From the NCBI GenBank assembly GCA_041639545.1, contig JBEQBZ010000005.1, forward strand, positions 98,015-162,014: a stretch of DNA of 64,000 bases. The letters run 5' to 3'. Below, piece by piece: positions 7,174-63,362 of this stretch. Position 1 is the stretch's first letter, and every line of letters starts with the position of its first letter. A model generated the notes under the pieces. The model saw only the letters and a program-made list of their open reading frames with translations, was not told the origin of the DNA and did not search any database. Source of the DNA: Methyloversatilis sp. (lineage in GTDB: Bacteria > Pseudomonadota > Gammaproteobacteria > Burkholderiales > Rhodocyclaceae). The position numbers were made by a program, and so were the translations under genes.

Positions 7174-7185
7174 CGGGCTGCCTCC

Positions 7186-11129: not shown

Positions 11130-11147
11130 GCCGGCAGCGCGGCAGGG

Positions 11148-14227: not shown

Positions 14228-14429
14228 CGCGGATATCTCCGGAAAGGATGCGGAAATATAGGGCGAGGCGCTGTCCGGCCTCACGTGCAATTTGCCCTGC
14301 GCCTCTAGGGATATTCTCGATTCCCGCCAGCGGGCGGCGTCGGCTCCGGTTGCCGGCCGGTGCTGGACGGTTTCAGGCGTGCTGGGTATGCTTTTTTCGA
14401 CGCCCGCCCCGCGTAACCGGAGTTCTGCC

Positions 14430-15128
14430 GTGTCCACCGCATCCCTGGTCAGCATCCCGCTCAGTTCCCGCCTGCTGCGCACCATGCGCGACGTGGCCAT
14501 CGACAACGCCCGCCAGCTGCTGCACGAAGCGCCATTGCTGCTGCGTCACCACCACCATGCGCGTGCGGCATTGCTGGCCCGCGTCGCGATCGAGGAGGTC
14601 GGGCGCGCGGTGCAGGCCTTCGACGCGCTTGGCCGCAACGTGACCGACGAAGCGGTGGCGATGCGGGTGAAGCTCAATTTCGAGGACTACCCGAAGCGCA
14701 TGAATGCAGCGGTTTTCCCGTTGCTGCTGGAAGAGCCGCAGCGGCGCGACGAGGTGATGGCGCAGATCGACGACCTGATCGAAGCCGGCCAGAACCCGCG
14801 TGATCCGGCGCTGTTCACCGGCGTCGATTCACTGACCGGCCGCGTCACTACGCCCAACGGCTCGATCGGCCCAGCGGCCGCTTCGCGCCGGCTCGCACTG
14901 GCGAAGGACATTTTCGCGCGTGGCGAAATGCTGGTGCTGTTCACGCCGCCCAAGCTGCGCACCCGCGCCGAGGACCGCGCGTTCGCGCTGCGGCCGGGCG
15001 AACTGATCGCGGCACGCCAGGGCGTCGAGGCGTGGGAGGTGTACATCGAGAACATCCGCGCCGGCGATGCGCGTTTCGATTCCGCGCTGGACGAAATGCG
15101 CCGGCGCGCCGCCGACGGCGAGCGCTGA
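14430..15128 (+). CDS. AbiV-like (HEPN) family protein, divergent
   Basis: N-terminal 'NARQLLHEAPLLL...ARAALLARVAIEEVGRA' resembles the AbiV pattern NAxxLxxxAxLL...AxEExGK. GTG start at 14430 with GGAG upstream. Confidence 0.6.
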   Translation: MSTASLVSIPLSSRLLRTMRDVAIDNARQLLHEAPLLLRHHHHARAALLARVAIEEVGRAVQAFDALGRNVTDEAVAMRVKLNFEDYPKRMNAAVFPLLLEEPQRRDEVMAQIDDLIEAGQNPRDPALFTGVDSLTGRVTTPNGSIGPAAASRRLALAKDIFARGEMLVLFTPPKLRTRAEDRAFALRPGELIAARQGVEAWEVYIENIRAGDARFDSALDEMRRRAADGER

Positions 15129-15262
15129 TCGCGGCCAGCAATGGGGCCGCTTCTCGATGCGTTGAATGACGGCTGTTCCGCGGCGCATTCATAAAGCGCT
15201 CGAACGCGCTGCGTGTCGGGGTTGCAGCCGCGCTCTGGTCACGGCCGGCTGCCGCAACCACC

Positions 15263-28123: not shown

Positions 28124-29365
28124 ATGCCCTGGCGCCTATTGCGATTCGGTCTGTCGAAGTCCCATCCGGAACCCCGGATGTTTACGGCTCACGACAAGCT
28201 CAAGCCCTCCTACGACGTAGTGATCATTGGTGGTGGAGGTCATGGCCTGGCCAGCGCCTACTACCTCGCCCGTGATCATGGCATCACCAACGTGGCGGTG
28301 CTTGAGAAGGGTTACATCGGTGGCGGCAATACCGGCCGCAACACCACCATCATCCGGTCGAACTATCTCACGCCTGAAGGCGTGAAGTTCTACGACAAGT
28401 CGGTGCAGCTGTACCAGGACTTGTCCACCGAGTTCGATCTCAACCTCTTCTACTCCACCCGCGGCCACTTCACGCTGGCCCACACCGATTCCGCGATGCG
28501 CACCATGCGCTGGCGCGCAGAGGTGAACAAGCACTACGGCATCGAGTCCGAAGTGGTGGGTCCGGAAGAAGTGAAGCGCCAGACCCCGCAGATCGATCTG
28601 TCCTGTGGTGGCCATGCGCCGATCCAGGGCGCGCTGTACCACGCGCCGGGCGCGGTGGCCCGTCACGATGCGGTGGCCTGGGGCTACGGCCGTGGCGCCG
28701 ACATGCGCGGTGCGGAAATCCACCAGCAGACCGCGGTGACCGGCATCGAGGTCAAGGGCGGCAAGGTGGTCGGTGTACACACCACCAAGGGTTTCATCTC
28801 GACCAACAAGGTCATCTGTGCGGTCGCCGGCTTCACGCCGCGCATCACCGACATGGTGGGCTTCAAGACGCCGATCTTCGTGCATCCGCTGCAGGCCATG
28901 GTGAGCGAGCCGATGAAGCCCTGGCTCGACACCATCCTGGTGTCCGGCAGCCTGCATATATATGTAAGCCAGAGCGCCCGCGGCGAACTGGTGATGGGCG
29001 CCTCGCTCGATCCGTACGAAGTGCAATCGACCCGTTCGACGCTGGACTTCCCGGAAGGCCTCGCCGCCCACCTGCTCGACATGTTCCCCTTCCTGTCGCA
29101 CTCCAAGGTGGTGCGCCAGTGGGCCGGCATGGCCGACATGACGCCGGACTTCGCGCCGATCATGGGCATGACGCCGGTCGAAGGCTTCTACCTCGATTCC
29201 GGCTGGGGTACCTGGGGCTTCAAGGCCACGCCGGTCTGCGGCAAGACCATGGCCTGGACCGCCGTCAATGACAAGCCGCATGAGCTGATTACCGGCTTCT
29301 CGCTCGACCGCTTCCGCAACTACTCGCTGACCGGCGAGAAGGGTGCGGCGAGCGTGGGTCACTGA
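28124..29365 (+). CDS. mgdA: N-methylglutamate dehydrogenase subunit A (sarcosine oxidase beta-like)
   Basis: IIGGGGHG FAD motif, GNTGRNTTIIRSNY, GWGTWGFK; adjacent to gmaS and mgsABC. Confidence 0.92.
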   Translation: MPWRLLRFGLSKSHPEPRMFTAHDKLKPSYDVVIIGGGGHGLASAYYLARDHGITNVAVLEKGYIGGGNTGRNTTIIRSNYLTPEGVKFYDKSVQLYQDLSTEFDLNLFYSTRGHFTLAHTDSAMRTMRWRAEVNKHYGIESEVVGPEEVKRQTPQIDLSCGGHAPIQGALYHAPGAVARHDAVAWGYGRGADMRGAEIHQQTAVTGIEVKGGKVVGVHTTKGFISTNKVICAVAGFTPRITDMVGFKTPIFVHPLQAMVSEPMKPWLDTILVSGSLHIYVSQSARGELVMGASLDPYEVQSTRSTLDFPEGLAAHLLDMFPFLSHSKVVRQWAGMADMTPDFAPIMGMTPVEGFYLDSGWGTWGFKATPVCGKTMAWTAVNDKPHELITGFSLDRFRNYSLTGEKGAASVGH

Positions 29366-29393
29366 GCGCGGAACAGAGAGCGGAGACGACGAC

Positions 29394-29651
29394 ATGAAAC
29401 TGATGACCTGTCCGATCAACGGCACGCGCCCGATCTCGGAGTTCGCCTACTGGGGCGAAATCCGTCCGGCGCCCGATGCCGATACCTGCAGCGACGACCA
29501 GTGGGCGGAATACGTGTTCCACCGCAACGGCGCACCCGGCGTGAAGAAGGAGTGGTGGTGCCATACGCCGTCGAATACCTGGTTCATCGCTGAACGCGAT
29601 ACCGAAAAGGACAAGGTGCTGCGCACCTATCTGCATGGAGATGACAAGTGA
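29394..29651 (+). CDS. mgdB: N-methylglutamate dehydrogenase subunit B (sarcosine oxidase delta-like)
   Basis: CPINGTRPISEF, EWWCH; ATG 29394 with GGAG RBS. Confidence 0.9.
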   Translation: MKLMTCPINGTRPISEFAYWGEIRPAPDADTCSDDQWAEYVFHRNGAPGVKKEWWCHTPSNTWFIAERDTEKDKVLRTYLHGDDK

Positions 29652-32548
29652 AGCGCCTCCCCGCAATGCCCGACGAGTGGCTGGATCGCAGCCGCACCGT
29701 CCGCTTCCGTTTTGAAGGCCGCTCGTTCGAAGGCCTGGCTGGTGACAGCATCGCCAGTGCGCTGTGGGCCGCCGGCCAGCGCAGCCAGGGCCGCAGCTTC
29801 AAGTACCACCGCGTACGCGGCATTCTGTCGGCCGCCAACCATGACGTGAACGTCATGCTGCAGGACGGCCCCAAGCTGAACACCCGCGGTGACGTGGTGG
29901 CGGTGCGTGAAGGCATGGACCTGACCGCGGTGAACACCTTCGGTGGCCTGGCCAACGACAAGGCGCGTCACCTGAACCTGCTGTCGCGCTTCCTGCCGGT
30001 CGGCTTCTACTACAAGGCCTTTCACAACAAGCGTCTGTTCCCGCTGTGGGAAAAGATGTTCCGCCGCATCACCGGTCTGGGCGTGGTCGATTTCTCGACG
30101 CCGCACATCCGCACCCAGAAGCGCTACGACTTCTGTGATGTGCTGGTGATCGGTGCCGGTCCGTCCGGTCTGGCCGCCGCGCTGTCGGCCGCCGAAGCCG
30201 GCGCCTCGGTGGTGGTCTGTGACGAGAACGCCCGCGCCGGTGGCAGCGGTCTGTTCCAGCTGGGCGCCGACGCGGCACGTCGTCAGCACACCGCCTCGCT
30301 GCTGCAGCAGGTGAAGGCCAACCCGCGCATCCGTCTGCTGGAAGGCACCTACGCCGGCGCCTACTACGCCGACCGCTGGGTGCCGCTGATCGACGAGAAC
30401 CGCATGACGAAGATGCGCGCCAAGTCGGTCATCCTGGCCAGTGGCGCCTACGAGCAGCCGGCGGTGTTCCGCAACAACGACCTGCCGGGCATCATGAACG
30501 GCTCGGCCATGCAGCGCCTGATCTACCGCTACGCGGTCAAGCCCTGCACCACCGCGGTCGTGCTGGCCGCCAACGCAGACGGCTACCGTGTCGCGCTCGA
30601 TCTGCTGGCCGCCGGCGCTGCCGTGGCTGCGGTGCTGGACATGCGCGCCAGCGTCCCGGCTTCGCCGCTGGCTGACGCGCTGCGTGCCAAGGGCGTGGAA
30701 ATCCTCGCCGGTCACGCGGTGTATGAAGCGCACGCCGATGGCAAGGGCGAGCTGGCAGGTGTCACCGCCTGTCGCATCGACGGCGCCGGCCGCGTGGTGT
30801 CGGGTTCGCAGCGCCGCATCAGCTGCGATGGCGTCGCGATGAGCACCGGCTGGTCGCCGGCCGCCAACCTGCTGTATCAGGCAGGCACCCGCATGCGCTT
30901 CGACGATCTGCTGCAGCAGTTCGTGCCGGAACAGCTGCCGGAAGGCGTGTTCGCCTGCGGCAAGGTGAATGGCGTGTTCCGCCTCGAATCGCGCATCACC
31001 GACGGTCAGCGCGCCGGCCTCGCGGCCGCCGCGAATGCCGGTTTCGAAGTCAGCGGCAACATTACCGTGCCGGCCGAAACCGAGTCGCCGTCGCATGCCT
31101 GGCCGGTGGTTGCTCATCCGGATGGCAAGAACTTCGTCGATTTCGACGAGGATCTGCAGGTGAAGGATTTCGAGAACGCGGTGCAGGAAGGCTACGACAA
31201 CATCGAGCTGCTGAAGCGCTTCTCGACCGTCGGCATGGGCCCCAGCCAGGGCAAGCACTCGAACATGACCGCGCTGCGCATCCTGGCGCGCCTGACCGGC
31301 AAGTCGCCGCAGCAGGTGGGCACCACGACCGCGCGTCCGTTCTTCCACCCGGTGCCGCTGTCGCACCTGGCTGGCCGCGGTTTCAGCCCGCAGCGCCACT
31401 CGCCGCTGCACGGCCGCCACGCCGCTGCCGGTGCGGTGTTCATGCAGGCCGGTGCGTGGGAACGTCCGGAGTACTACGCGGTGACGGGCAAGTCGCGCAT
31501 CGACTGCATCCGTGAAGAGGCGCGCCGTGTGCGCACCGCGGTTGCGCTGATCGACGTCGGCACGCTGGGCAAGCTGGAAATCCGTGGCCCGCAGGCCGCC
31601 GAGTTCCTGAACCGGGTCTATACCGGCCGCTACGACAACATGAAGGTGGGTGCCACGCGCTACGCCGTCATGTGTGACGAATCCGGCGTGCTGAGCGACG
31701 AAGGCGTGGTGGCGCGCATCGCTGACGACGTCTTCTACTTCACCACGACCAGTTCGGGTGCGGCCACCGTGTATCGCGAGCTGTCCCGCCTGAACATCGA
31801 GTGGAAGCTGGACTGCGGCCTGATCAACCTGACCGGTTCGTACTCGGCGATGAATCTGGCCGGTCCGGCGTCGCGCAAGGTGCTGGCCCAGCTGACCGAC
31901 ATGGATCTGTCGTCTGCCGCCTTCCCCTACCTCGCGGTGCGTACCGGTACGGTGGCGGGCATCCCGGCTCGCATGATGCGGGTGGGCTTCGTCGGCGAAT
32001 GGGGCTACGAAATCCACATCCCGGCCGAGTACGGCGCCACGCTGTGGGACGCGCTGATGAAGGCCGGTGAATCGTCGGGCATCGGCCCGTTCGGCGTCGA
32101 GGCCCAGCGTCTGCTGCGCCTGGAAAAGGGCCACCTGATCGTGAGCCAGGACACCGACGGCCTGACCAATCCGTTCGAAGTCGGCATGGACTGGGCGGTC
32201 AAGCTGGACAAGCCCTTCTTCACCGGCAAGCGCTCGCTGCAGATCGTTCGCAAGATGCCGCTCAAGCGCAAGCTGGTCGGCTTCCGTCTGGGCGAGAACC
32301 ACAGCGGCGAAGTGCCGAAGGAATGTCACCTGATCATCCAGGACGGCGACATCGCCGGCCGTGTGACCAGCATTTCCTGGAGCCCGCATGTCGGTCGCTT
32401 CATCGGTCTGGCCTTCGTGCTGCCGTCGATGTCCGAATCCGGCACGCCTTTCCAGATCCGTCTGACCGACGGAAGCATGGTGAACGCCGAGGTCTGCGAC
32501 ACGCCCTTCTTCGACCCGAAAGACGAACGCCAGAAGGAAATCGAATGA
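29648..32548 (+). CDS. mgdC: N-methylglutamate dehydrogenase subunit C (sarcosine oxidase alpha-like, GcvT folate domain)
   Basis: GRSFKYHR, IGAGPSGL, GMGPSQGK, DVGTLGK, LRLEKG. Confidence 0.92.
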   Translation: MKRLPAMPDEWLDRSRTVRFRFEGRSFEGLAGDSIASALWAAGQRSQGRSFKYHRVRGILSAANHDVNVMLQDGPKLNTRGDVVAVREGMDLTAVNTFGGLANDKARHLNLLSRFLPVGFYYKAFHNKRLFPLWEKMFRRITGLGVVDFSTPHIRTQKRYDFCDVLVIGAGPSGLAAALSAAEAGASVVVCDENARAGGSGLFQLGADAARRQHTASLLQQVKANPRIRLLEGTYAGAYYADRWVPLIDENRMTKMRAKSVILASGAYEQPAVFRNNDLPGIMNGSAMQRLIYRYAVKPCTTAVVLAANADGYRVALDLLAAGAAVAAVLDMRASVPASPLADALRAKGVEILAGHAVYEAHADGKGELAGVTACRIDGAGRVVSGSQRRISCDGVAMSTGWSPAANLLYQAGTRMRFDDLLQQFVPEQLPEGVFACGKVNGVFRLESRITDGQRAGLAAAANAGFEVSGNITVPAETESPSHAWPVVAHPDGKNFVDFDEDLQVKDFENAVQEGYDNIELLKRFSTVGMGPSQGKHSNMTALRILARLTGKSPQQVGTTTARPFFHPVPLSHLAGRGFSPQRHSPLHGRHAAAGAVFMQAGAWERPEYYAVTGKSRIDCIREEARRVRTAVALIDVGTLGKLEIRGPQAAEFLNRVYTGRYDNMKVGATRYAVMCDESGVLSDEGVVARIADDVFYFTTTSSGAATVYRELSRLNIEWKLDCGLINLTGSYSAMNLAGPASRKVLAQLTDMDLSSAAFPYLAVRTGTVAGIPARMMRVGFVGEWGYEIHIPAEYGATLWDALMKAGESSGIGPFGVEAQRLLRLEKGHLIVSQDTDGLTNPFEVGMDWAVKLDKPFFTGKRSLQIVRKMPLKRKLVGFRLGENHSGEVPKECHLIIQDGDIAGRVTSISWSPHVGRFIGLAFVLPSMSESGTPFQIRLTDGSMVNAEVCDTPFFDPKDERQKEIE

Positions 32549-33219
32549 ACGCCCCCTTCGCCCCCAATCGCATCAGCCCTCTGTTCGACGAACAGGCGCC
32601 GCACGCGGCGAAGTGGACCCAGGTCGAGACCATGCAGACCGTGGCCTCCTTCGGTTCGGCCGACGCAGCCCGCCTGCCGCTGGCCGGCATCGGCGACCTC
32701 AGCTTCCGCCGCCGTGCCGGCGTCAAGGGTCCGGGCGCTGCGGCCTGGCTCAACGCCCTGGGCATCGTGACGCCGGAGCGCATGAACAGCTGGCTGCGCA
32801 TGGACGACGGCACCCTGGTGCTGCGTCTGGGCAATACCGAGTACCTGGTCGAGGACGCACCGGGTGGCAGCCATGCCGCGCAGATGAACGCGACCGCGCC
32901 GGCACAGGGCGTGTATCCGGTGCCGCGCTATGACGCCGCGCTGGTTGTCGCCGGCCGCAACGCGCTCGAACTGACCCGCCAGACCTGTGCTTTCGATTTC
33001 ACCACCCTGTCGCCTGCGGCGCAGGGTGTGGCGATGACCTCGATGGTCGGCGTCGGCATCACCGCGGTCGCGATGGAAAGCGGCGGCGAAACGTATTACC
33101 GGCTGTGGTGCGACGGCACCTATGGCGGTTATCTGTGGGCCACGCTGGTCGAGGTGGCTGCGGATCTCGGAGGAGGTGCGGTCGGCCTGGAATCGCTTGG
33201 CCGGCTCGCACAGCAATAA
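32545..33219 (+). CDS. mgdD: N-methylglutamate dehydrogenase subunit D (sarcosine oxidase gamma-like)
   Basis: ATGA overlap with the mgdC stop; GVKGPGAAAWL, LWCDGTYGGYLWATL. Confidence 0.85.
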   Translation: MNAPFAPNRISPLFDEQAPHAAKWTQVETMQTVASFGSADAARLPLAGIGDLSFRRRAGVKGPGAAAWLNALGIVTPERMNSWLRMDDGTLVLRLGNTEYLVEDAPGGSHAAQMNATAPAQGVYPVPRYDAALVVAGRNALELTRQTCAFDFTTLSPAAQGVAMTSMVGVGITAVAMESGGETYYRLWCDGTYGGYLWATLVEVAADLGGGAVGLESLGRLAQQ

Positions 33220-33286
33220 CAAACAGCGCGCCGTCTGACGACGGCGCAATTCAGTCAGATACGAGCCGTTTGGACAGGGAGGGAAT

Positions 33287-34618
33287 GTGATGTCACCCAG
33301 CGAAGCACAGCAGTTCCTGAAGGAAAACCAGGTCAAGTACATCCTGGCGCAGTTCGTCGATATCCACGGTTCAGCCAAGACCAAGTCGGTCCCGGCCGAG
33401 CATTACAAGACCGTGGTGACCGCTGGCGCCGGCTTTGCCGGTTTCGCGATCTGGGGCATGGGCATGACCCCCAACGTCGACGCCGACTACATGGCCGTGG
33501 GCGACGCTTCGACGCTGTCGCTGGTGCCCTGGCAGCCGGGCTACGCCCGCATCGCCTGTGACGGTCACACGCACGGCAAGCCGCACGAGTACGACACCCG
33601 CGTCGTGCTGAAGAAGCAGCTGGAGCAGATCACCGCCCGCGGCTGGACTTTCTTCACCGGCATGGAGCCCGAGTTCTCGCTGCTGCGCAAGGTCGAAGGC
33701 AAGCTGCTGCCGGCCGATCCGGGCGACACGCTGTCCAAGCCCTGCTACGACTACAAGGGTCTGTCGCGCGCCCGCGTCTTCCTGGAGCGTCTGTCCGAGT
33801 CGCTGCGCTCGGTCGGCATCGACGTCTATCAGATCGACCACGAAGACGCGAATGGCCAGTTCGAGATCAACTATACCTTCACCGACGCGCTGACCTCCTG
33901 CGACCACTACACCTTCTTCAAGATGGGTGCCGCCGAGATCGCCGCCGAACTGGGTCTGATCTGTTCGTTCATGCCCAAGCCCTTCTCGAACCGCCCGGGC
34001 AACGGCCTGCACATGCACATGAGCATCGGCGACGGCAAGCGCAACCTGTTCGAGGACAAGTCGGACAAGCACGGCCTTGACCTGTCGAAGCTGGCCTACC
34101 ACTGGGCGGCCGGTCTGCTCAAGCACGCACCGGCCCTGGCCGCGCTGTGCTGCCCGACCGTGAATTCCTACAAGCGTCTGGTGGTTGGCCGTTCGCTGAC
34201 CGGCGCCACCTGGGCACCGGCCTACATCTGCTACGGCGGCAACAACCGCAGCGGCATGATCCGCAGCCCGGGCGGCCGTCTGGAACTGCGCCTGCCGGAC
34301 GCTTCCTGCAATGCTTACCTCGCAACCGCCGCGGTCATCGCCGCCGGCATGGACGGGGTGATCAACGAGCTCGATCCGGGCACGCCGCAAAACGACAACC
34401 TGTACGAGTACAGCCAATCGCAGCTTGATGCCGCCGGTATCAAGGTGCTGCCGCAGAACCTGCATGAGGCGCTGCTGGCGCTCGAAAAGGACGAAGTGAT
34501 CCGCGCTGCACTGGGTCCCGTCGTCGACGAGTTCCTGCGTCTCAAGCACATGGAGTGGGTCGAGTACATGCGTCACGTCTCGGACTGGGAAGTGAACAGC
34601 TACCTCGAATTCTTCTGA
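33287..34618 (+). CDS. gmaS: Gamma-glutamylmethylamide synthetase (glutamine synthetase family)
   Basis: [47 protein letters not shown]; lies between mgd and mgs. Confidence 0.93.
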
Positions 34619-34638
34619 TCAATCGCCGGAGAACGGAT

Positions 34639-35547
34639 ATGTGTGGAATCGTTGGACTGCTGGTCAAGACACCGGCATTGAAGGAGCGCCTGGGCGAACT
34701 GATGGTGCCCATGCTGATCGGCATGACCGAGCGCGGTCCGGACTCGGCGGGTCTCGCCGTGTTCGGCGACTCGCTGGCCGAGAACTCGCGCAAGCTGAGC
34801 CTGTACTCGGGTCTCACCGATGACGGTGCGGATTTCAACTGGCATGGCCTGACGCACGCGCTGAAGGAACACCTCGATGTCGACGCGCACATCGACGTGA
34901 AGCACAACCACGCCGTGCTGTCGTTCGCCGTGTCGCCGGAGCTGGTCAAGCGCTGGCTGCGCGAGAACCACCCGAAGCTGCACATCCTGAGCACCGGCCG
35001 CACGATCGACCTGTACAAGGACATCGGCACCCCGGCCCAGGTGGCCGACCGCTACGACTTCAAGTCGATGAAGGGTTCGCATCTGGTGGGTCACACCCGC
35101 ATGGCGACCGAATCGGCGGTGACGCCGGATCGCGCCCACCCCTTCACCGCCGGTGAAGATTTCTGCCTGGTGCACAACGGCTCGCTGTCGAACCCGAACT
35201 CGATCCGCCGCAAGCTGACGCCGGCCGGCATCCACTTCGAAACCGACAACGACACCGAAGCCGCCTGCCGCTTCCTCGAATGGCGCCTGCGTGAAGGCGA
35301 CGACCTGGAAGTCGCGCTGCAGAAGGGCTTCGACGAACTGGACGGTTTCTTCACCTTCCTGATGGGTACGCCGGACAAGCTCGCGCTGATCCGCGATCCC
35401 TTCGCCTGCAAGCCCGCAGTCGTGGCCGAAACCGACGACTACGTCGCTATCGCGTCGGAATTCCGTTCGCTGGCCCACCTGCCTGGCGTCAAGCACGCCA
35501 ACGTGTTCGAACCCGCGCCCGAGGAGATGTACGTATGGAACGCATGA
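34639..35547 (+). CDS. mgsA: N-methylglutamate synthase subunit A (class II glutamine amidotransferase)
   Basis: MCGIVG N-terminal nucleophile; RGPDSAG, GHTRMATES, VHNGSLSN. Confidence 0.93.
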   Translation: MCGIVGLLVKTPALKERLGELMVPMLIGMTERGPDSAGLAVFGDSLAENSRKLSLYSGLTDDGADFNWHGLTHALKEHLDVDAHIDVKHNHAVLSFAVSPELVKRWLRENHPKLHILSTGRTIDLYKDIGTPAQVADRYDFKSMKGSHLVGHTRMATESAVTPDRAHPFTAGEDFCLVHNGSLSNPNSIRRKLTPAGIHFETDNDTEAACRFLEWRLREGDDLEVALQKGFDELDGFFTFLMGTPDKLALIRDPFACKPAVVAETDDYVAIASEFRSLAHLPGVKHANVFEPAPEEMYVWNA

Positions 35548-36224
35548 CCTTCGATCTCGCCAGCTCGTCGCTGACCGAGATGAACACCTTCCTGCACAAG
35601 GGTCTTGAGGAAGGCGACAAGCGCCACATTTCGGTGCTGAACCCGGACGGCGCGCACAACATCGCCGTCGGCCTGAACCACCCGGTCACCGTGGAAATCC
35701 ATGGTCACGCCGGCTACTACGCAGGCGGCATGAACAAGCACGCCCGCGTCGTGATCCACGGCAGCGCCGGTACCGGTGTCGCCGAGAACATGATGAGCGG
35801 TTCGGTGCACGTGAAGGGCTTCGCCTCCAACGGTGCCGGCGCGACCGCCCACGGCGGCCTGCTGGTGATCGACGGTGACGCCGGCCTGCGCTGCGGCATC
35901 TCGCTCAAGGGCGGCGACATCGTCGTCGGCGGCAGCGTCGGCAGCTTCTCCGGCTTCATGGCCCAGGCCGGCCACATGGTCATCTGTGGCGATGCCGGCG
36001 ATGCGCTCGGCGATTCGCTGTACGAAGCGGTCATCTACCTGCGCGGCAACGTGAAGTCGCTCGGTGCCGATGCCCAGTTCGAGGACATGACCGACGCCGA
36101 CTACGCGACGCTGGCCGAACTGCTGTCCAAGGCCGGCATGGACCACGATCCGAAGTCGTTCAAGCGCATTGCCTCGGCTCGTACGCTCTATCACTGGAAC
36201 GCGGACGCGAACCAGGAGTACTGA
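35535..36224 (+). CDS. mgsB: N-methylglutamate synthase subunit B (GXGXG domain)
   Basis: Repeated G-x-G-x-x-G beta-helix, e.g. GHAGYYAGGMN, GVAENMMSG. Confidence 0.92.
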   Translation: MERMTFDLASSSLTEMNTFLHKGLEEGDKRHISVLNPDGAHNIAVGLNHPVTVEIHGHAGYYAGGMNKHARVVIHGSAGTGVAENMMSGSVHVKGFASNGAGATAHGGLLVIDGDAGLRCGISLKGGDIVVGGSVGSFSGFMAQAGHMVICGDAGDALGDSLYEAVIYLRGNVKSLGADAQFEDMTDADYATLAELLSKAGMDHDPKSFKRIASARTLYHWNADANQEY

Positions 36225-36303
36225 CATCTCCTGTGGGCAAGCGGGACGGTGCGGAACGATCCGCCCTCCCGCGTAGCAGACACCGAATACAAAGGACTCA
36301 CAA

Positions 36304-37668
36304 ATGGACATCAAACCCGTTTCGTTCAAGCGCGTCTCCCGGGAGGAGTCCGCGAGCTTCGACCGCTCGACCATCGACTACATCCAGAACGCCGCTGCGC
36401 ATGGCCTGTACGAAATCCGCGGCATGGGCGCCAAGCGCAAGCTGCCGCACTTCGACGACCTGCTGTTCCTGGCCGGCTCGCTGTCGCGTTACCCGCTGGA
36501 AGGCTATCGCGAAAAGTGCGTGACCAAGACCATCCTGGGTACCCGCTTCGCCAAGAAGCCGATCGAGCTGGACATCCCGATCACCATCGCCGGCATGAGC
36601 TTCGGCGCGCTGTCGGCCAACGTGAAGGAATCGCTGGGCCGCGCCGCCACCGCGATGGGCACCACGACGACGACCGGTGACGGCGGCATGACGCCGGAAG
36701 AGCGCAACTCGTCGAAGACGCTGGTGTACCAGTGCCTGCCGTCGCGTTACGGCTTCAACCCGGACGACGTGCGTCGCGCTGATGCGATCGAAGTCGTGAT
36801 CGGTCAGGGCGCCAAGCCGGGCGGCGGCGGCATGCTGCTGGGCCAGAAGGTGAACCCGCGCGTGGCCAAGATGCGCACCCTGCCGCAAGGCGTGGATCAG
36901 CGCTCGGCCTGCCGTCACCCCGACTGGACCGGTCCGGACGATCTGGCGATCAAGATCCAGGAACTGCGCGAGCTGACCGACTGGGAAAAGCCGATCTACG
37001 TGAAGGTGGGTGCAACCCGTACCTTCAACGACGTCAAGCTGGCCGTTCATGCCGGTGCTGACGTGGTGGTGGTCGATGGCATGCAGGGCGGCACCGCAGC
37101 CACCCAGACCTGCTACATCGAACACATCGGCATCCCGACGCTGGCTGCAGTCCGCCAGGCGGTCGATGCGCTGGAAGACCTGAACATGAAGGGCCAGGTC
37201 CAGCTGATCGTGTCCGGCGGCATCCGCAGCGGCGCCGACGTCGCCAAGGCGCTGGCGATGGGTGCTGATGCAGTCGCGATCGGTCAGGGCATCCTGTTTG
37301 CGCTCGGCTGTAACTCGGAAACCTACATCCAGGACGGCAAGCACATTTCGGCCCTCGAAGGTTACGACGCCCTCGGTACCCAGCCCGGCTTCTGCCACCA
37401 CTGCCACACCGGCAAGTGCCCGGTCGGCGTGACCACGCAGGATTCGGTGCTCGAACAGCGTCTGCAGCCGGACGTCGGTGCCCGTCGCGTCAAGAACTAC
37501 CTGAAGACGCTGAACATGGAACTCACCACGATCGCCCGTGCCTGCGGCAAGCAGAACGTGCATCACCTGGAGCGCGAAGACCTGGTCGCCCTGACGCTGG
37601 AAGCCGCCGCCATGGCGCGCATCCCGCTGGCGGGCACCAGCTGGATCCCGGGCCACAACGGCTACTGA
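36304..37668 (+). CDS. mgsC: N-methylglutamate synthase subunit C (FMN-binding glutamate synthase domain)
   Basis: GMSFGALS, GQGAKPGGGG, DGMQGGT, SGGIRSG, CHHCHTGKCPVGVTTQD Fe-S motif. Confidence 0.93.
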   Translation: MDIKPVSFKRVSREESASFDRSTIDYIQNAAAHGLYEIRGMGAKRKLPHFDDLLFLAGSLSRYPLEGYREKCVTKTILGTRFAKKPIELDIPITIAGMSFGALSANVKESLGRAATAMGTTTTTGDGGMTPEERNSSKTLVYQCLPSRYGFNPDDVRRADAIEVVIGQGAKPGGGGMLLGQKVNPRVAKMRTLPQGVDQRSACRHPDWTGPDDLAIKIQELRELTDWEKPIYVKVGATRTFNDVKLAVHAGADVVVVDGMQGGTAATQTCYIEHIGIPTLAAVRQAVDALEDLNMKGQVQLIVSGGIRSGADVAKALAMGADAVAIGQGILFALGCNSETYIQDGKHISALEGYDALGTQPGFCHHCHTGKCPVGVTTQDSVLEQRLQPDVGARRVKNYLKTLNMELTTIARACGKQNVHHLEREDLVALTLEAAAMARIPLAGTSWIPGHNGY

Positions 37669-53263: not shown

Positions 53264-55126
53264 ATGAACGACGTGCGCCGGCTCGGACGCTATGTGCTGG
53301 GCCGGGAAATCGGCCGTGGCGAACGTGGCGCGGTATTCGAAGCGACCGAACCGGGCGCCGGACGTACGCTGGCACTCAAGCTTTTCCGCATCGATATCGT
53401 GGCCGACCCCGACACCTATGTTCGTGCGCTCGGCCGCAGCATGCTGGCGGCCTCCGGCCTGCGGCATCCGGGCGTGGTGCGGGTGATCGAACAGGGCGTG
53501 GCCGCCGACGGCCAGCCCTGGGTGGTCAGTGAGCGGCCGGATGCGCGCTCGCTGCGCCAGCTGCTGGACGTACTGCCGCGCATGTCCTTCGAGTGGGTGC
53601 GCAGCATCGGGCTGCAGGTGGCGGAGGCGCTGGCCTGTGCCCATGCTGCCGGCGTGGTGCATGGCGGGCTGAAGGCGTCCAACATCCTGATCGACGGCGA
53701 AGGCCGGGTGTCGGTGACCGACTTCGGCCTGCCAGTGCCGTCGCCGGATGCGTTGCCGGCGATGCCGCAGTACCTGTCGCCTGAACAGGTGCAGGGCCTG
53801 CCGCCGGATGCGCGGTCCGACGTGTTCTCGCTTGGCGCGCTGATGTTCGAAATGCTGGCGGGCCGGCCGCCTTTCGGCTCACCGCTGACCGGTTCGCTGG
53901 GCACCGTGCTGGAAAACATTGCCCATGCGCCGACGCCGACGCCCAGTGCGCTCGACCCGGATGTGCCGCCCGATCTCGATATCGTCGTGATGAAGGCGCT
54001 CGCCAAGTCGCCGGTGGACCGTTACGCCGATGCCGCCGCGCTGGCCACCGCGCTGCGCGGGGCAGTGCTGGATGCAGTCGCTGCGCCCGCACAGGCGCAG
54101 CCGGCGGATACCCCGCGGCCATCGCCGACGCACGTCGAGGAGGCCTCGCCGCCCTACCGGCGCGGCCGTTCGGGCAAGCCGGCTGCGCCGGTCGACGACG
54201 TGCTGGCCGAACTGGCGGCCGATATCGATGCCTTCTCCGCCCGCGGCACGCCGGATGCGTCGTTAGGGCAGCCTGTACCCGCCCGGACACCGGCCCGGAG
54301 CGGTCGTGATGCCGGTGCTGAACCGGTGGCCTTCCCGACGCTGACTGACGCGCCGACCCCGCGCCCGCTCGGTACGGCAGCCGCTGCGCCGGCGGTGCGT
54401 CCGCAGGCACCGCCGGCTGCGGCGCCCTCTGCAACGCCGGCGACGGCGTCTTCGCTGCTGGCCGATCTGGCGGGCGAGGCGCAGCGCATCCGTGCGCACG
54501 CGATGCAGATGCAGCGTGGCGAACAGGCGGCGCGCACCGGCGCGGAGCAGGCGCTGTCGCAGCGCCTGCTGCGGGTGCGCGACTACTTCACCCAGCTGTC
54601 CGCCCAGCTCAACGTGATCCGGCCGCAGGTGGCCCGCGACTACGCCCTGCTCGGTCTGGGCGTGCTGCGCGGGCTGTCCTGGCAGGCGTCCGACGTCAAT
54701 GCACGCCAGCGCGGCCCGGAGGCGCCTGATCAGATCGCCCGCGTGTCGCTGTCATGGCAGTTGCGCGGGCAGTCGGTGCTGCGCTGCGAGCGCGACGCGC
54801 TGTCGGCCGATGCGCTGCGGGCGGCGCTGAAGGAGCACGGCCTGCGCTTCGAGGAACAGCCCTCGCGCGACGACTACGGCCGGCTGCGCGCGCAGGTGTT
54901 TGAAGTGGCGCCGGACGTGCGTGGCCGCGCCGAACTGGTGGCCGATTACGCGACGCTGACGCTGCGGCTCACGCTGCAGAACGTCGAGCGTTTCGGCGTC
55001 GTCGATTACACGCCGCCGGCAGACGACGCCGGCAACGAATGGCTGGACGAACTGGTGCGCCTGCTGCTCGGCCAGCCCAGCCGCTTCCCGACGCTGGCGC
55101 GTCTCATCGTGCCGTCCGCCGGCTGA
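53264..55126 (+). CDS. Ser/Thr kinase-fold pseudokinase with Pro/Ala linker and unknown C-terminal domain
   Basis: ALK, DFG, YLSPEQ and DVFSLG retained; catalytic loop reads HGGLKASN (no HRD Asp); GGAGG RBS. Confidence 0.85.
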   Translation: MNDVRRLGRYVLGREIGRGERGAVFEATEPGAGRTLALKLFRIDIVADPDTYVRALGRSMLAASGLRHPGVVRVIEQGVAADGQPWVVSERPDARSLRQLLDVLPRMSFEWVRSIGLQVAEALACAHAAGVVHGGLKASNILIDGEGRVSVTDFGLPVPSPDALPAMPQYLSPEQVQGLPPDARSDVFSLGALMFEMLAGRPPFGSPLTGSLGTVLENIAHAPTPTPSALDPDVPPDLDIVVMKALAKSPVDRYADAAALATALRGAVLDAVAAPAQAQPADTPRPSPTHVEEASPPYRRGRSGKPAAPVDDVLAELAADIDAFSARGTPDASLGQPVPARTPARSGRDAGAEPVAFPTLTDAPTPRPLGTAAAAPAVRPQAPPAAAPSATPATASSLLADLAGEAQRIRAHAMQMQRGEQAARTGAEQALSQRLLRVRDYFTQLSAQLNVIRPQVARDYALLGLGVLRGLSWQASDVNARQRGPEAPDQIARVSLSWQLRGQSVLRCERDALSADALRAALKEHGLRFEEQPSRDDYGRLRAQVFEVAPDVRGRAELVADYATLTLRLTLQNVERFGVVDYTPPADDAGNEWLDELVRLLLGQPSRFPTLARLIVPSAG

Positions 55127-58327: not shown

Positions 58328-59218
58328 ATGACATCCCAACACCCCTCACTGTGCGTGCTGTTCGCAGACGTGTCCGGCAGCACCCGGCTTTACGAAAAGC
58401 TGGGTGACGCCGAGGCCTTGCGCGCGGTCGAACGTTGCCTGAACCGCATGAGCCGCGTGGTCGACGGGCATGGCGGCCGGGTGATCAAGACCATCGGCGA
58501 CGAGGTGATGACCACCTTCCCGAGCGCCGACGCCGGCATACAGGCTGCCTGCGAAATGCAGCACCGGGTGACCGATCTGCCGCCGGTGTCCGGCGTGAAG
58601 CTGGCGATACGGGTGGGTTTCTGTTTCGGTCCCGCGATAGAGGAAAACGGTGACGTGTTCGGTGACACCGTGAACATGGCGTCCCGCATGGCCGGTGTGG
58701 CCAAGGCCGGTCAGATCATGACCAGCGCCGAAACCATTTCAGCGGTCACGCTGAGCCTGGCGCCGCAGGTACGCGAAATCGATGCACTGACGGTGAAAGG
58801 CAAGACCGAGGACGTTCGGGTGTGCGAGGTGCTGTGGCAGGAGGGCGCCGACCTGACGATGAAGGCCACCAGCATCGTCGCCAGCTACAACGTCGCCCGC
58901 CTGATGGTGCGCTACCGCGAAACCGAACTGACCGTGGACAACGCCCACGGCCCGCTCACGCTCGGCCGCGACATGAGCAACGAAGTGGTGATCAAGGACC
59001 AGCGCGCCTCGCGCAATCACGCGCGCATCGAGCGCCGGCGTGACAAGTTCGTGCTGATCGACCAGAGCACCAATGGCACCTTCCTGCGCATCGAAGGCGA
59101 GAACGAGGTGGTGCTCAAGCGCGAGGAAATCATCCTGCGCGGCCAGGGCACCATCGGTTTCGGCCACAGCGCGCTGGAACAGGGCATAGACCTGATGAGT
59201 TTCGAGGTGCTGGAGTAA
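58328..59218 (+). CDS. Class III adenylate cyclase with C-terminal FHA domain
   Basis: FADVSGST, KTIGDEV, GDVFGDTVNMASR (metal Asp pair, Lys/Asp adenine specifiers, Asn/Arg); FHA motifs LGR, SRNHA, STNGT. Confidence 0.92.
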   Translation: MTSQHPSLCVLFADVSGSTRLYEKLGDAEALRAVERCLNRMSRVVDGHGGRVIKTIGDEVMTTFPSADAGIQAACEMQHRVTDLPPVSGVKLAIRVGFCFGPAIEENGDVFGDTVNMASRMAGVAKAGQIMTSAETISAVTLSLAPQVREIDALTVKGKTEDVRVCEVLWQEGADLTMKATSIVASYNVARLMVRYRETELTVDNAHGPLTLGRDMSNEVVIKDQRASRNHARIERRRDKFVLIDQSTNGTFLRIEGENEVVLKREEIILRGQGTIGFGHSALEQGIDLMSFEVLE

Positions 59219-59228
59219 TCGCCTCCGC

Positions 59229-59250
59229 CGTGCCGGCGCCTGCCGGCACG
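59229..59250. terminator. Hairpin between the convergent cyclase and kinase genes
   Basis: CGTGCCGGC-GCCT-GCCGGCACG 9-bp stem, no clear U-tract. Confidence 0.45.
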
Positions 59251-59254
59251 CGCC

Positions 59255-61684
59255 TCACATGCTGAGTTTCTTCAGCGTATCCGGATTGCTCACCACCGCC
59301 TGACGGCGCGACGGCGCGGCTTCCATCAGCGCGGCCGGCGGCAGCGTCTGCAGCCGGGCCAGCATGTCCGGGGTGGCGCAGCCGGCATCGAAAGCCAGCG
59401 TGACCGCGTCCTGGCTGCTTGCCGCCACGCTCAGGCAGTTGCGCCCCAGCTTGCGCGACAGCGGCATCAGGATGCCGGCCTGCACGTTCTGCCCGGTATC
59501 CGCCAGACCGCCGGACATGTCCACCACGAAGGCGGCGCTGTCGCGGCCCAGCGTCTTCACCTCGGCGCCGAGCACCGCGCGCATCGACGCGATTTCGCGC
59601 AGCAGCGATCCGGCCACTTCCTCGCCCGGCAGGCCGGTCAGCTGCAGCGCCACCCGGCGCGCGGTGAAGTGGAAGTGGCTGAGGAAGAAGTCGCGGCTGA
59701 ACTGTTCGCCCACCCGCTTGCCGATGTCGGCCAGCGCCTTCTCTTCCGACGCCCAGCTCGTGCCTTCCGGCACCGCGGTGTTCAGATACACCTCCTCGCC
59801 GGTCTTGCGGTCGGTGCAGCGTACCGTCCATGAGGTCAGCACCACCTTCTCGATCACCAGTCCGGAAGCCGGCAGCCGCGCGCTCAGGCGCTTGAAGCGC
59901 ACTTCGCTGTCCACGGTGAAGTCCGCGTTCTGGGCAGCATTGGCTTCGTCGTTCCAGGTGCGGAAGCCGAAGCCCTGGATGTGCTGTTTCAGCGTGTTTT
60001 CGGCCAGCGCAGAGCGCTGCGCCGGCGCATTCGGATCGCCTTCTGCCCAGCGCGAGGCCACCGCCACCGCGATTTTCGGATCGCCGTTGTTGCGGATGAA
60101 ATCCACCCGTTCGTCCTGCGACATCTGGTTCAGTGACTTCTGCACCTGGCGCACCTTGACCGCGGCCCGCACCTGGCCTGCCATCAGACCGTCCTTGCCC
60201 AGCTGGGGCGGGCCTTCTTCGAGCACCGCCTGGATGAAGTCGCTGCTGCGGTCGAGCAGCCTGGCCTGCAGTACGTCGTAATGCGCGTTCACCGATTTCG
60301 GATCGACGAACAGCGCGACCGCCTTTTCCAGAATCTGCCGGCGCGCGTCCTCGCGCAGCGCCTGGGTCATCGCGGCCGGGTTGTCGGCCAGCTTCGGGTC
60401 GCTCGGGTCGGCCAGGCCGATGGCGCTGATCACCGCCACGCCCGGGTCGAGCGGTGGCGCGGGCGTGACGGCCACCGGTGCCGGGGCGGCCGGTCCGGTC
60501 GCGACCGGGGCGGTGCCTGCGGGTGCGGCAGGTGCCTCCGGCGCCGGCCGGGACAGCAGCCAGCCGCCCGCGGCGACCGCGACCAGTGCAGCCGTTACGG
60601 CGACCGCGATCGGGGCGCGGGACGATGCCGGCCGGGACTGCGGGGCCGGCGCGGGAGGCAGCGTATCCGTACGCGCCGCAGGTGCGGAGGTGGCGGGGGA
60701 AACAGGTGTTTCGCTGACCGTGCTGGGGCGCACCGGCTGCTGCAGCGTTGAATCGGCCTGAGCGGCCGGCGATGGGCCGGCCATCGTTGCGTTGGCGAGC
60801 GTGGCGTCCGAAAGCGTGGTGTCGCCCAGATTGACCATGGTGGCGTCGTTGTCAGCCTGTGCGCCTGACAGTGCGGCGTCCAGCGCGCGCCGGAAGTCGG
60901 CGGCGCTCTGAAAGCGGTCTTCCGGGCGTTTGGCCATGGCCCGCTTCACCACCGCGTCGAGGCGGGTCGGCACATGCACGTTCAGCACCGAAGGCCAGGG
61001 CGGGTCTTCCTTCAGCACCTTGTGCATGATGGTGGTGAGCGCGCCGGTGAACGGCTTTTCGCCGGTCAGCAGCTGGTACAGCACCACGCCAGCGGAAAAC
61101 AGGTCGCTGCGGCCATCCACGGTCTGGCCCATGAACTGTTCGGGCGACATGTAGGACGGCGTGCCCATCACGGTGCCGGCCTGGGTCAGATTGGACGATT
61201 CGATGCGGGCCACGCCGAAATCGGCCACCTTCACCGTGCCATCGGCCAGCAGGATGATGTTGGCCGGCTTGATGTCGCGGTGTACGACGCCGTTGCGGTG
61301 GGCGTGTTCCAGCGCGTCCAGCAGCTGGCCCATGATGCGGCCCACCAGCGGCAGCGCGATGCGCTCGTCCGAATCGAAGGCGTCCTTCAGTTCGCGGCCG
61401 TGCACGAATTCCATCGCGATGAAGGCGGTGCCGTCCGCTTCTTCACCATACTCATAGATGGCCACCACGTTCGGGTGGTTGAGCCGGCCAGCCGCCTGCG
61501 CCTCGCGCTTGAAGCGCGCGATCACCTCGTCGGCCTCGCTGCGCTCGATCTGTTCGCGCTTCAGCGTCTTGATCGCAACCCGCCGGTCGATGACCGGATC
61601 GCGGCCTTCGTAGACGATGCCCATCGCACCCTGGCCCAGTTCGCGCAGGATGTCGTACTTGCCCAGCTTGGCGGGGATGCTCAC
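59255..61684 (-). CDS. Membrane Hanks-type Ser/Thr kinase with FlgT-like periplasmic region
   Basis: GQGAMG, VAIK, HRDIKPAN, DFG, GTPSYMSPEQ intact; one TM; C-terminal region resembles FlgT-N/LPP20 followed by an FlgT-M/TolB_N-like fold (by eye). GTG start at 61684 with GGAG RBS. Confidence 0.9.
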   Translation of the reverse strand: MSIPAKLGKYDILRELGQGAMGIVYEGRDPVIDRRVAIKTLKREQIERSEADEVIARFKREAQAAGRLNHPNVVAIYEYGEEADGTAFIAMEFVHGRELKDAFDSDERIALPLVGRIMGQLLDALEHAHRNGVVHRDIKPANIILLADGTVKVADFGVARIESSNLTQAGTVMGTPSYMSPEQFMGQTVDGRSDLFSAGVVLYQLLTGEKPFTGALTTIMHKVLKEDPPWPSVLNVHVPTRLDAVVKRAMAKRPEDRFQSAADFRRALDAALSGAQADNDATMVNLGDTTLSDATLANATMAGPSPAAQADSTLQQPVRPSTVSETPVSPATSAPAARTDTLPPAPAPQSRPASSRAPIAVAVTAALVAVAAGGWLLSRPAPEAPAAPAGTAPVATGPAAPAPVAVTPAPPLDPGVAVISAIGLADPSDPKLADNPAAMTQALREDARRQILEKAVALFVDPKSVNAHYDVLQARLLDRSSDFIQAVLEEGPPQLGKDGLMAGQVRAAVKVRQVQKSLNQMSQDERVDFIRNNGDPKIAVAVASRWAEGDPNAPAQRSALAENTLKQHIQGFGFRTWNDEANAAQNADFTVDSEVRFKRLSARLPASGLVIEKVVLTSWTVRCTDRKTGEEVYLNTAVPEGTSWASEEKALADIGKRVGEQFSRDFFLSHFHFTARRVALQLTGLPGEEVAGSLLREIASMRAVLGAEVKTLGRDSAAFVVDMSGGLADTGQNVQAGILMPLSRKLGRNCLSVAASSQDAVTLAFDAGCATPDMLARLQTLPPAALMEAAPSRRQAVVSNPDTLKKLSM

Positions 61685-61769
61685 TCGGCTGCTCCGTCGG
61701 GATGCAGGCGGACGCATCCGCCTGCGGGACCGGCTGTATCGCGGGTTGGACTGCCCGCGTCGCGCTCGC

Positions 61770-62576
61770 TTACTTGTACTTCGAATCGATTTCCCAGACC
61801 GACTTCTGCACCAGACGCTGCACCATGCCGTCCAGCGTGATGCCGCCTTCCTGGCTGCTCGACACGCCGAGAATGGAGGAGCCCTTGGCGCCCACTTCCA
61901 TCTTCTCTTCGGTATAGCCCTGGGCCAGCTGTTCGGTGGTGTTGGCGTCCATGATCTTGTAGCGCATGCCGATGATCCACACACCTGCAGCGGCACCGGT
62001 TTCGACCGAACCCACCGCTTCGCCGGCCGCGTAGCTGCCGCGGCTGCCGCCGAGAATGCCGATGATGTTGCCCAGCGCGCGGCCGCTGATCCCTTCCTTG
62101 GCGGCGGCGACCTGCTCCGCTTTCAGAATGTCGAACTTGACCACGTACTTGGTCGTTTTCAGCTTGCCCTTCTGCAGCATCTTCTTGGCCGAATCCGGGT
62201 CGCCCATCGAGTAGGCCAGCTGAAACTCGTTCAGCAGCGGGCCGAGGTCGGAACGCTCCAGCACCTTGAAGTTGGCCTGCGACAGTTCCAGTTCGCCGAA
62301 GTCGGCGATGTTGTTCGACGCGAACTTCTGGGTGAAGGTGGCGTTGTTACTCTTGATCTCGCCCGGCACCACGATCACCGTCGGGCCCGGCTTGGACCTG
62401 TTGGCGTACTCGACCGCCTTGTACATGGCCTTGTCGGCGCCTTCGTTCGCTTTCTGCGACACGCTGCTGCCGGCGGTCGGCGAGGCGCTCTCGAAGGTGG
62501 GCTGGGCGTGGGCCAGCGTCGCGATGCCGCCGAGGACGGCGACCAGCATGGCCGTGTGAAGTCTGTTCAGTTGCAT
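61770..62576 (-). CDS. Exported CsgG/HfaB-like protein
   Basis: Signal peptide; NFKVLERSDL...LNEFQL and glycine-rich strands ending in YKIMDANTTE resemble the CsgG family. Confidence 0.7.
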   Translation of the reverse strand: MQLNRLHTAMLVAVLGGIATLAHAQPTFESASPTAGSSVSQKANEGADKAMYKAVEYANRSKPGPTVIVVPGEIKSNNATFTQKFASNNIADFGELELSQANFKVLERSDLGPLLNEFQLAYSMGDPDSAKKMLQKGKLKTTKYVVKFDILKAEQVAAAKEGISGRALGNIIGILGGSRGSYAAGEAVGSVETGAAAGVWIIGMRYKIMDANTTEQLAQGYTEEKMEVGAKGSSILGVSSSQEGGITLDGMVQRLVQKSVWEIDSKYK

Positions 62577-62651
62577 GGACGTTCCTTTCCCTGAAAATGT
62601 CCGGAACCGTGTCGTTCCGTTGATCGGCCGCGCGATCACGCTGCGCGGCAC

Positions 62652-63362
62652 TTATTTGCCTTTTCTGTTGCCCTTCTTTTCCTCACCGGCCGGTCGGGTG
62701 GCGCAGTAGCCGCCGAGCAGTCTGTTCACCACGCCGTCTGCCTGCTCTTCGATCAGCGTGCGTGCCATCGCCAGGGTGTCGCTGCCCGAATAGGATTCGC
62801 CGCTGGCGGACGCTTCCGACAGTCGGGTGCCGCCCGAGGTGAGCAGCGCGTAGTCGATGCTGACCGACACTTCGGGGATGCGCAGCACCGGGTTCATGCC
62901 GCTGCGCGCCTCGATCAGACCGCGCATCACCAGCTGGGCGCCGAGCTTCTTGGACGCGGCGAGCGCGGCGTCCGGGTCGTTGCGGAAATAGGCGTCCACT
63001 TCGGCCTGAGCGACCTGGGCCCGGATTTCCTGCTGGGTCAGCGTACGGATGCCCAGCTTCTGCAGGCGTTTGTGGATGGCGTTGAAATGCGGGCTGTAAC
63101 GGGCCTGGTCGGCGGTAATGCCTTCGCCGGAGCGCTCGCCCATCACAATCATGATCTTGCGCCGCTTCAGTTCGTCCAGGCAGGGCTGGGGCAGGGCGGT
63201 CAGGCCGGCAGTGGCGGCGGCGCTGCGGGCGGCTTCCTCAGCCGCGTCTTTCTGCGCGTCCTCGGTGAAACTGAAGGCGCTGGCGGACTGGGCGGCCATG
63301 CCGACGACCAGCGCGCCGCTCAGGCGCAGCAGGATACGTACGGTGAGGTGCAGTCGCGCCAT
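62652..63362 (-). CDS. Exported hypothetical protein, probable FlgT-M/TolB_N/CsgG-like fold
   Basis: Signal peptide; KIMIVMGE...LQKLGIRTL...AASKKLGAQLVMRG pattern; two Cys. Confidence 0.65.
   Translation of the reverse strand: MARLHLTVRILLRLSGALVVGMAAQSASAFSFTEDAQKDAAEEAARSAAATAGLTALPQPCLDELKRRKIMIVMGERSGEGITADQARYSPHFNAIHKRLQKLGIRTLTQQEIRAQVAQAEVDAYFRNDPDAALAASKKLGAQLVMRGLIEARSGMNPVLRIPEVSVSIDYALLTSGGTRLSEASASGESYSGSDTLAMARTLIEEQADGVVNRLLGGYCATRPAGEEKKGNRKGK

Follow-up and report, generated by a model that had tools for sequence, protein, structure and literature searches.

Introduction

To our knowledge, almost no receptor Ser/Thr kinase of Gram-negative bacteria has a known input and output outside type VI secretion systems (T6SS). 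In the H1-T6SS pathway of Pseudomonas aeruginosa (TagQRST, PpkA, Fha1, and PppA), TagQ/TagR contacts and likely dimerises the kinase PpkA, which phosphorylates Fha1, and activation likely proceeds via kinase dimerisation (PMC13713981). Here we describe a four-gene cluster of Methyloversatilis sp., a methanol-using betaproteobacterium. The analyzed DNA (assembly GCA_041639545.1, contig JBEQBZ010000005.1, positions 98,015 to 162,014) is 64,000 nucleotides long and is called the window below; all coordinates are its own. The cluster encodes two exported proteins, A and B, a membrane Hanks-type Ser/Thr kinase, K, and an adenylate cyclase with an FHA domain, C. On balance we lean to the view that A-B-K-C is an undescribed relay of the TagR/PpkA/Fha1 kind, leading from the envelope to a probable cyclic AMP (cAMP) output; all evidence for the coupling is genomic.

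The H1-T6SS pathway resembles our cluster in gene content: genes for periplasmic accessories stand together with those for a Hanks kinase of one membrane pass and for an FHA protein. One distant homologue of B is also fused to an FGE-sulfatase domain, the domain family of TagR. The differences are that the accessories here have a CsgG/LpoB-type fold, that TagQRST and PppA homologues were not found in the cluster, and that the FHA partner is an adenylate cyclase. As the initial annotation had stated, no curli, holdfast, flagellar, or T6SS families are present among the 53 genes called in the window and assigned to families by Pfam. The CsgG family and the T6SS protein VipA were likewise not found by the genome-wide family search (the genome is 87.8% complete), and FlgH of the host is encoded on another contig. 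The cluster does not qualify as a T6SS threonine phosphorylation pathway and shares its working plan only in gene content.

The ring formers CsgG, PelC, TraT, and FlgT share their fold with B and with the middle outer domain of K, and the whole outer part of K aligns with FlgT. In contrast to these proteins, to which identity is only 7-18%, B has no lipid anchor and falls under the Pfam CsgG cut-off, one subunit is fused to a kinase, and curli, Pel, conjugation, and flagellar genes are missing nearby. CsgG itself is a nonameric beta-barrel lipoprotein channel (PMC7304575). Given the missing anchor, the Pfam score, and the lack of csg context, B does not qualify as a CsgG curli channel, nor does the outer part of K qualify as FlgT by gene context.

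Several other systems share single features with the cluster. LpoB activates the inner-membrane wall synthase PBP1B across the envelope; A weakly matches LpoB, and in both cases an exported protein of this fold would switch on an inner-membrane enzyme, but A has no lipid anchor and its presumed target is a kinase. Synechocystis Cya1 and Anabaena CyaD combine a class III cyclase with an FHA domain as C does, whereas C has its cyclase at the N-terminus, lacks a GAF domain, and is linked to the operon of a receptor kinase. In Arthrospira, a fusion of a Ser/Thr kinase with a cyclase is described (PMC2853384). Juxtamembrane phosphosites are described in StkP, PknB, and PrkC (PMC12077195), and GarA carries a Thr motif N-terminal to its FHA domain (PMC12321487). 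The PknB/StkP kinases, GarA/OdhI, and the Rv1747-PknF pair thus resemble our cluster in having a phosphorylatable juxtamembrane region (here predicted) and an FHA partner that bears a Thr motif next to its FHA domain, and an Rv1747-like FHA-ABC transporter is present in one of our loci. They differ from it in that here the host is Gram-negative, the outer part of the kinase is FlgT-like rather than PASTA, two dedicated exported partners are present, and the output is a cyclase.

Association of kinases with FHA domains and kinase-cyclase fusions are treated in general terms in PMC2176072, PMC1262709, and PMC2853384. In agreement with the initial annotation, our literature search, which left most subscription papers and supplements outside, found no description of an A-B-K-C cluster or of kinase control of an FHA cyclase. 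The wiring plan is known; the sensor module and the output are undescribed.

Structure of the Kinase and the Cyclase

The genes A, B, and K follow each other tightly on the minus strand, and C lies opposite on the plus strand, its stop codon 36 bp from that of K. All four genes are intact. For K (59255..61684, 809 amino acids) we accepted a GTG start, and for B an ATG start, since the GTG start at 62651 in the open reading frame list was judged unlikely. The same-strand run of two exported proteins and an intact membrane kinase facing a cyclase, as initially annotated, is borne out by the gene calls and complete motifs. The closest named relatives of this locus are Methyloversatilis universalis records, in which B is 96-97% identical.

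The catalytic domain of K (60875..61684, residues 1-270) has every Hanks motif: Gly loop at 17, VAIK at 36, the alphaC Glu, HRD at 135, DFG at 155, an activation-loop Thr, and xPE at 178. Among 59 K homologues VAIK and DFG are conserved in 59 and HRD in 58. One transmembrane helix (60554..60610, residues 359-377, hydropathy 2.26) is predicted, and all 59 homologues have one by their best-scoring hydropathy segment. By its sequence K thus has the features of a Hanks receptor Ser/Thr kinase: full catalytic motifs, one transmembrane helix, and a predicted extracytoplasmic domain. A search for short forms of K gave, among the 120 of 253 matches listed, proteins of 44-97% identity, many of them named partial kinases.

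The juxtamembrane linker of K (60611..60868, 86 residues) contains four acidic-x-Thr-hydrophobic motifs (T282, T290, T295, and T313). The juxtamembrane regions of the homologues hold 108 such motifs against 5.9 +/- 2.4 in 1000 shuffles, the motif having been defined after the window was viewed, and 57 of the 59 kinases have at least one. These threonines are likely autophosphorylation and FHA docking sites.

The outer, periplasmic part of K (59258..60454 on the minus strand, residues 411-809) comprises three predicted domains of about 400 residues in all, with an invariant Cys pair in the last, and its model has a mean predicted local distance difference test (pLDDT) of 86.5. Its top Foldseek match is FlgT (3w1e, E 1.2e-6, 393 columns); 246 residues align with FlgT over model positions 7-382 with Z 8.9 at an rmsd (root-mean-square deviation) of 5.2. 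The middle domain (60085-59672) has an HpaA/FlgT-M/PelC/TraT/CsgG fold, matching HpaA with Z 10.5, FlgT-M with 9.4, and PelC, TraT, TolB, and CsgG with 8.4-8.8, while the third domain resembles small alpha/beta folds only (Z about 6). An FlgT-N/LPP20-like domain, also annotated initially, was indicated only by the multi-domain FlgT alignment; none of 56 K outer parts matched FlgT, LPP20, or CsgG in Pfam. A sub-significant ToxA_N match in 13 of the 56 was rejected as noise.

Protein C (58328..59218, plus strand, 296 amino acids) contains a Guanylate_cyc domain at residues 4-161 (58337-58810) and an FHA domain at 211-271 (about 58946-59146). Its catalytic set is complete (D14, K54, D58, D109, N116, and R120); in class III enzymes such residues are the metal Asp, the Lys and Asp that specify adenine, and the Asn/Arg pair. 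The FHA core G213-R214, S228-x-x-H231, and N249-G250 contains the motifs GR, SxxH, and NG known for FHA domains (PMC1262709). The initial claim of a complete cyclase with a complete FHA domain was thus correct at the residue level, and both cAMP synthesis and phosphothreonine (pThr) binding are predicted. In the linker between the two domains lies Thr177 (58856..58858), a predicted phosphosite in a motif similar to the acidic-x-Thr motifs of K. The juxtamembrane Thr motifs, the conserved Thr177, and the kinase-free trio described below are additions to the initial annotation.

Co-occurrence of the Kinase with the Cyclase

If C is the output of K, then how regularly do both genes accompany each other? 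We used two genome samples, one of the family (n=251) and one of the order (n=351); the family counts of K, B, and C were made by hand from search results. In the family sample K was detected in 34 genomes, all of which also have B and a close C (E<=4e-96), and in 30 of them K and C converge at a distance of no more than about 3 kb. In the order sample C (E<=4e-84) accompanies K in 16/16 genomes versus 75/351 overall. Here C adjoins K in 10 of the 15 non-self genomes, is not adjacent in three, and could not be placed at contig ends in two; four further families are represented. When we chose 34 operon genomes without an adjacent C, one of them shared with the order sample, C was found elsewhere in 33. 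In three metagenome loci C lies upstream of A and divergent from it.

Genomes with B and without an adjacent K gave neither K nor C in five of five cases, by a search without its own positive control. Eight family-sample genomes have B and no K; no C was found in five of them, and in three a catalytically damaged C faces B.

The state of the C protein follows a similar pattern. The catalytic set and the linker Thr are intact in 29 of the 30 K-adjacent loci, the exception being a frameshifted gene (L094), and in 20/20 C proteins from other K genomes, although their identity is only 42-56%; in total, 49 of 50 loci of kinase-bearing genomes retain both. Positional orthologs from genomes without a found K, drawn from the top of the similarity ranking, retain both in 10 of 37. 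The FHA core is intact in 91/91 C proteins. Against the link, FastTree trees, from which near-identical Methyloversatilis rows were omitted, place 6-8 changes in the state of C versus 4 in that of K. Weighing this evidence and the counter-evidence given below, C looks like a kinase-coupled cyclase with K as its likely main, not sole, partner. The initial expectation that the cyclase co-occurs with the operon stands for K genomes in both samples; it is qualified in that C is not a dedicated member, its family is wider, and its slot is kept without the operon.

The C locus varies in several ways. At the C locus many Rhodocyclaceae (L139-L158, L104-L112) keep a pseudo-cyclase whose FHA core is perfectly conserved, which suggests a non-catalytic FHA role. 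In an operon-less genus, a different CsgG-family protein, with a Pfam match above the cut-off, occupies the same slot and converges on an intact cyclase-FHA gene (L096:8053-8907, L098:5425-6216). In L021 the gene of a four-FHA, Rv1747-like ABC transporter (13244-16282) separates K from C; this transporter has an acidic-x-Thr motif of its own.

Evolution of the A-B-K Operon

The A-B-K unit is a conserved betaproteobacterial operon. We examined the best 80 of 408 GTDB loci with B. The gene directly upstream of B is A in 78 of them, and the one directly downstream is K in 72; four of the eight loci without K there end at a contig edge. The unit occurs in many unrelated neighbourhoods. K was present in 34/251 genomes of the family sample and in 16/351 of the order sample (six families); of 400 other genomes of the phylum, only one gave B.

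Nineteen distant B proteins were aligned for a search that led to 80 metagenome loci. Thirteen of them, some redundant and with a G+C content of 0.29-0.67, carry a kinase-free trio: A, a stand-alone version of the outer domain, and B (A is cut off in two). The stand-alone domain is 32-38% identical to that of K and has its own signal-like N-terminus where complete, and B has a lipobox in all 13. Neighbours of the trio include LPP20, TPR, CsgG, and FlgT_N proteins, once a kinase with an FHA protein, and once a CHASE2 cyclase (L190, two genes downstream).

This arrangement suggests that A, B, and the outer domain form one envelope unit. The presence of the trio in divergent bacteria indicates that an older envelope module probably acquired the kinase by fusion; kinase fusion and loss of the lipid anchor of B would then be the betaproteobacterial derivative, a direction that we infer.

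Other versions of the unit were also detected. In L113 (6187-7722), L114, L115, L030 (3727-5238), and L031, A carries a fused, exported caspase-like (Peptidase_C14) domain; B comes next, and a kinase is absent. In L113-L115 catalytic residues have been lost from the facing cyclase. In L084 (10772-12634) and L087 (1544-3346) a CHASE2-adenylate cyclase directly follows B and replaces the kinase. In Rhodocyclaceae loci L047, L068, L091, and L093 (about 10000-11700) B is duplicated in tandem, and L093 has an extra gene (14079-14909) for the first and third outer domains only.

Proteins A and B

Both A (62652..63362, minus strand, 236 amino acids) and B (61770..62576, minus strand, 268 amino acids) have hydrophobic signal-like N-termini and no lipoprotein cysteine; B has no Cys at all, and A has an invariant Cys pair. 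A lipobox was found in 4 of 120 close homologues of B and in 1 of 116 of A. For this reason an outer-membrane ring of the CsgG type cannot be assumed.

The initial annotation proposed a CsgG/TolB_N/FlgT-M fold for all three outer parts, and models and Foldseek uphold it for B and the middle domain of K; for A it is plausible. The monomer model of B (pLDDT 64, core 75-87) matches FlgT (Z 13.8, rmsd 3.7, 155 residues aligned), CsgG (6lqh; Z 13.2, rmsd 5.0, 145 residues), which is tied with FlgT, and PelC (Z 12.3, rmsd 2.4, 120 residues), and structure comparison and Foldseek also gave CT253 and TolB_N. Two Gly-rich insertions have low confidence. One of them (61986..62102, residues 159-197, 10 Gly of 39) is a candidate oligomer or membrane-contact hairpin by the model, and distant B homologues give Gly-zipper hints in Pfam. 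Pfam CsgG matches B partially, at 20.0 bits under the 20.8 cut-off, and no csg operon context was seen in the window or at the fetched B loci. For A, 54 of 66 homologues match Pfam LpoB at E<=1 (best value 0.0012, a weak match of the CsgG clan), and the nearest named Atlas clusters of an A homologue are LpoB/GNA1162 (0.93).

PDB sequence searches with B and with the alignment of K outer parts gave nothing useful. Profile comparison gave 2% for A and B, 0.1% for the outer part of K and B, and 21.8% for the outer part of K and A (E 0.001, 47 columns), so by sequence the three are not detectably related. Prediction of a three-chain complex scored 0.01 against a mark of 0.32; this mark was not calibrated on three chains and the controls were not folded, so the score is evidence neither way.

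The same fold was also found in TolB, LpoB, LptE, and HpaA, which are not channels. As it is common to ring and non-ring proteins, it does not demonstrate a ring. Some distant B proteins carry a fused PG_binding_1, LysM, SH3, or FGE-sulfatase domain, and one protein (P0437) is an A-B fusion (hhalign 88.7%, E 2.5e-6, 188 columns). Apparent B-kinase fusions (P0460, P0429, P0496, P0421, and P0445) were rejected as frameshifted read-throughs.

Proposed Mechanism and Alternative Explanations

We propose that A, B, and the outer part of K assemble into one periplasmic complex. Mutual binding of the three would be expected because they are co-inherited in two gene orders and in one A-B fusion. The assembly state or an envelope cue would cluster K, which would autophosphorylate its activation loop and juxtamembrane Thr motifs. 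The FHA domain of C would dock on these pThr sites, and K would phosphorylate C at Thr177. This residue may then be bound by the FHA domain of C itself or of its partner, as in GarA/OdhI. Several cyclases docked on one tail would favour the active cyclase dimer, and cAMP would rise. Since docked cyclases may dimerise, we chose activation as the direction, with a slight preference over inhibition or mere localisation. C would probably serve as a shared reader, usable by other kinases too. A bolder version of the relay, tentative as a whole, is that an old CsgG/FlgT-fold assembly was made a receptor by kinase fusion, that its ring clusters K, the tail dimerises C, and the linker pThr sets cAMP; Proteobacteria would then have their first direct relay from a Ser/Thr kinase to cAMP.

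A number of observations weigh against the coupling of C to K. Where enough DNA downstream of K was available, C was there in only 29 of 59 loci; the two genes are on opposite strands, and the cluster has no phosphatase gene. The acidic-x-Thr motif is generic, being present in other local kinases and FHA proteins as well. Besides C, the host genome encodes two further FHA proteins and three further cyclases of class III. The cyclase-FHA family is found in 173/251 and 75/351 genomes of the two samples, mostly without K, and ten of the K-less orthologs retain the cyclase and the linker Thr. Of 40 K-less genomes examined, 37 have C in the hprK/psiF-ttcA/folM slot, so the adjacency of C to K is partly inherited. 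Among the 20 loci where K genomes carry C away from K, nine show it divergent from another kinase operon, which (L127-L136) encodes an exported protein, a Tll0287-HAMP membrane protein, and a soluble 460-amino acid Ser/Thr kinase. Finally, the tree contrast has only three independent K+/K- pairs, none opposite, and is not significant (p 0.5; L094, a paralogue, and three non-syntenic rows were also omitted).

The wide spread of C, its kept slot, its second kinase neighbour, the other FHA proteins, and the non-significant contrast all suit the explanation that A-B-K is a self-contained envelope sensor for other FHA or non-FHA targets, with C an inherited neighbour answering to other kinases or to none. 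We consider this improbable, although it is the strongest of the alternatives, because no K genome without C was met in the two samples and only one was missed among the 34 chosen ones. Moreover, five families retain the convergent pair, which has followed the operon into new contexts, the divergent arrangement among them, and decay of C is frequent where K is missing and never seen where K is present.

The trio could also be chiefly a structural envelope machine, a channel like CsgG/PelC/TraT or a wall-linked scaffold, which K anchors to the inner membrane and whose assembly or cargo K reports, signalling being secondary. The envelope proteins beside the kinase-free trio with its lipoprotein B, the fusions of distant B to PG_binding_1, LysM, and SH3, the ring or channel proteins among the best fold matches, and the two low-confidence Gly-rich insertions of B fit such a machine. 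It is nevertheless rather unlikely: no conserved gene for cargo, secreted substrate, or transporter stands beside the betaproteobacterial operon, B has lost its lipobox there, and non-channels share the fold. Least probable, in our opinion, is that K binds C through pThr and FHA merely to position it, so that cAMP is pooled locally at a pole or envelope site, or to switch it off. Intramolecular pThr-FHA binding is indeed the off switch in GarA/OdhI (PMC12321487), and the juxtamembrane region of StkP is dispensable for activation (PMC12077195), but a tail with several docking motifs is suited to concentrating and dimerising its partner. The relay from envelope to cAMP remains the reading we prefer.

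Other Genes of the Window and the Host Genome

About 3 kb from C lies a second kinase-like gene (53264-55123, plus strand), kept in several Methyloversatilis loci; having HGG for HRD and degenerate motifs, it is a probable pseudokinase. The window starts with nonribosomal peptide synthetase genes (1-8997, minus strand) and contains, by Pfam, an AbiV/HEPN gene (14430-15125, plus strand) and a methylamine-related cluster (28178-37665, plus strand), which we take to be the N-methylglutamate pathway. Contigs from RNA libraries cover the entire region evenly and are, for that reason, uninformative on transcription and operon structure; scanning for promoters and terminators was uninformative too. 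Elsewhere in the host genome (G000:C9:69934-81341) a CHASE2-type membrane kinase, a PP2C-like phosphatase, an FHA protein, a membrane cyclase, and GAF proteins lie together, the cyclase and FHA protein being identified by family search and the other members by eye. The genome has ten cyclic nucleotide monophosphate (cNMP)-binding domains.

Significance

The cluster names a candidate input and a candidate output of a receptor kinase in harmless hosts that can be cultured, Methyloversatilis, Azospira, and Dechloromonas relatives, and offers single-residue handles on it: K39 and the juxtamembrane Thr residues of K, and Thr177 and the FHA Arg214 of C. If the relay is true, it would link pThr signalling to cAMP and would give a reason for the FHA domains on hundreds of betaproteobacterial cyclases. 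An unstudied envelope module of CsgG/FlgT fold, present in diverse bacteria, would also gain a role in signalling.

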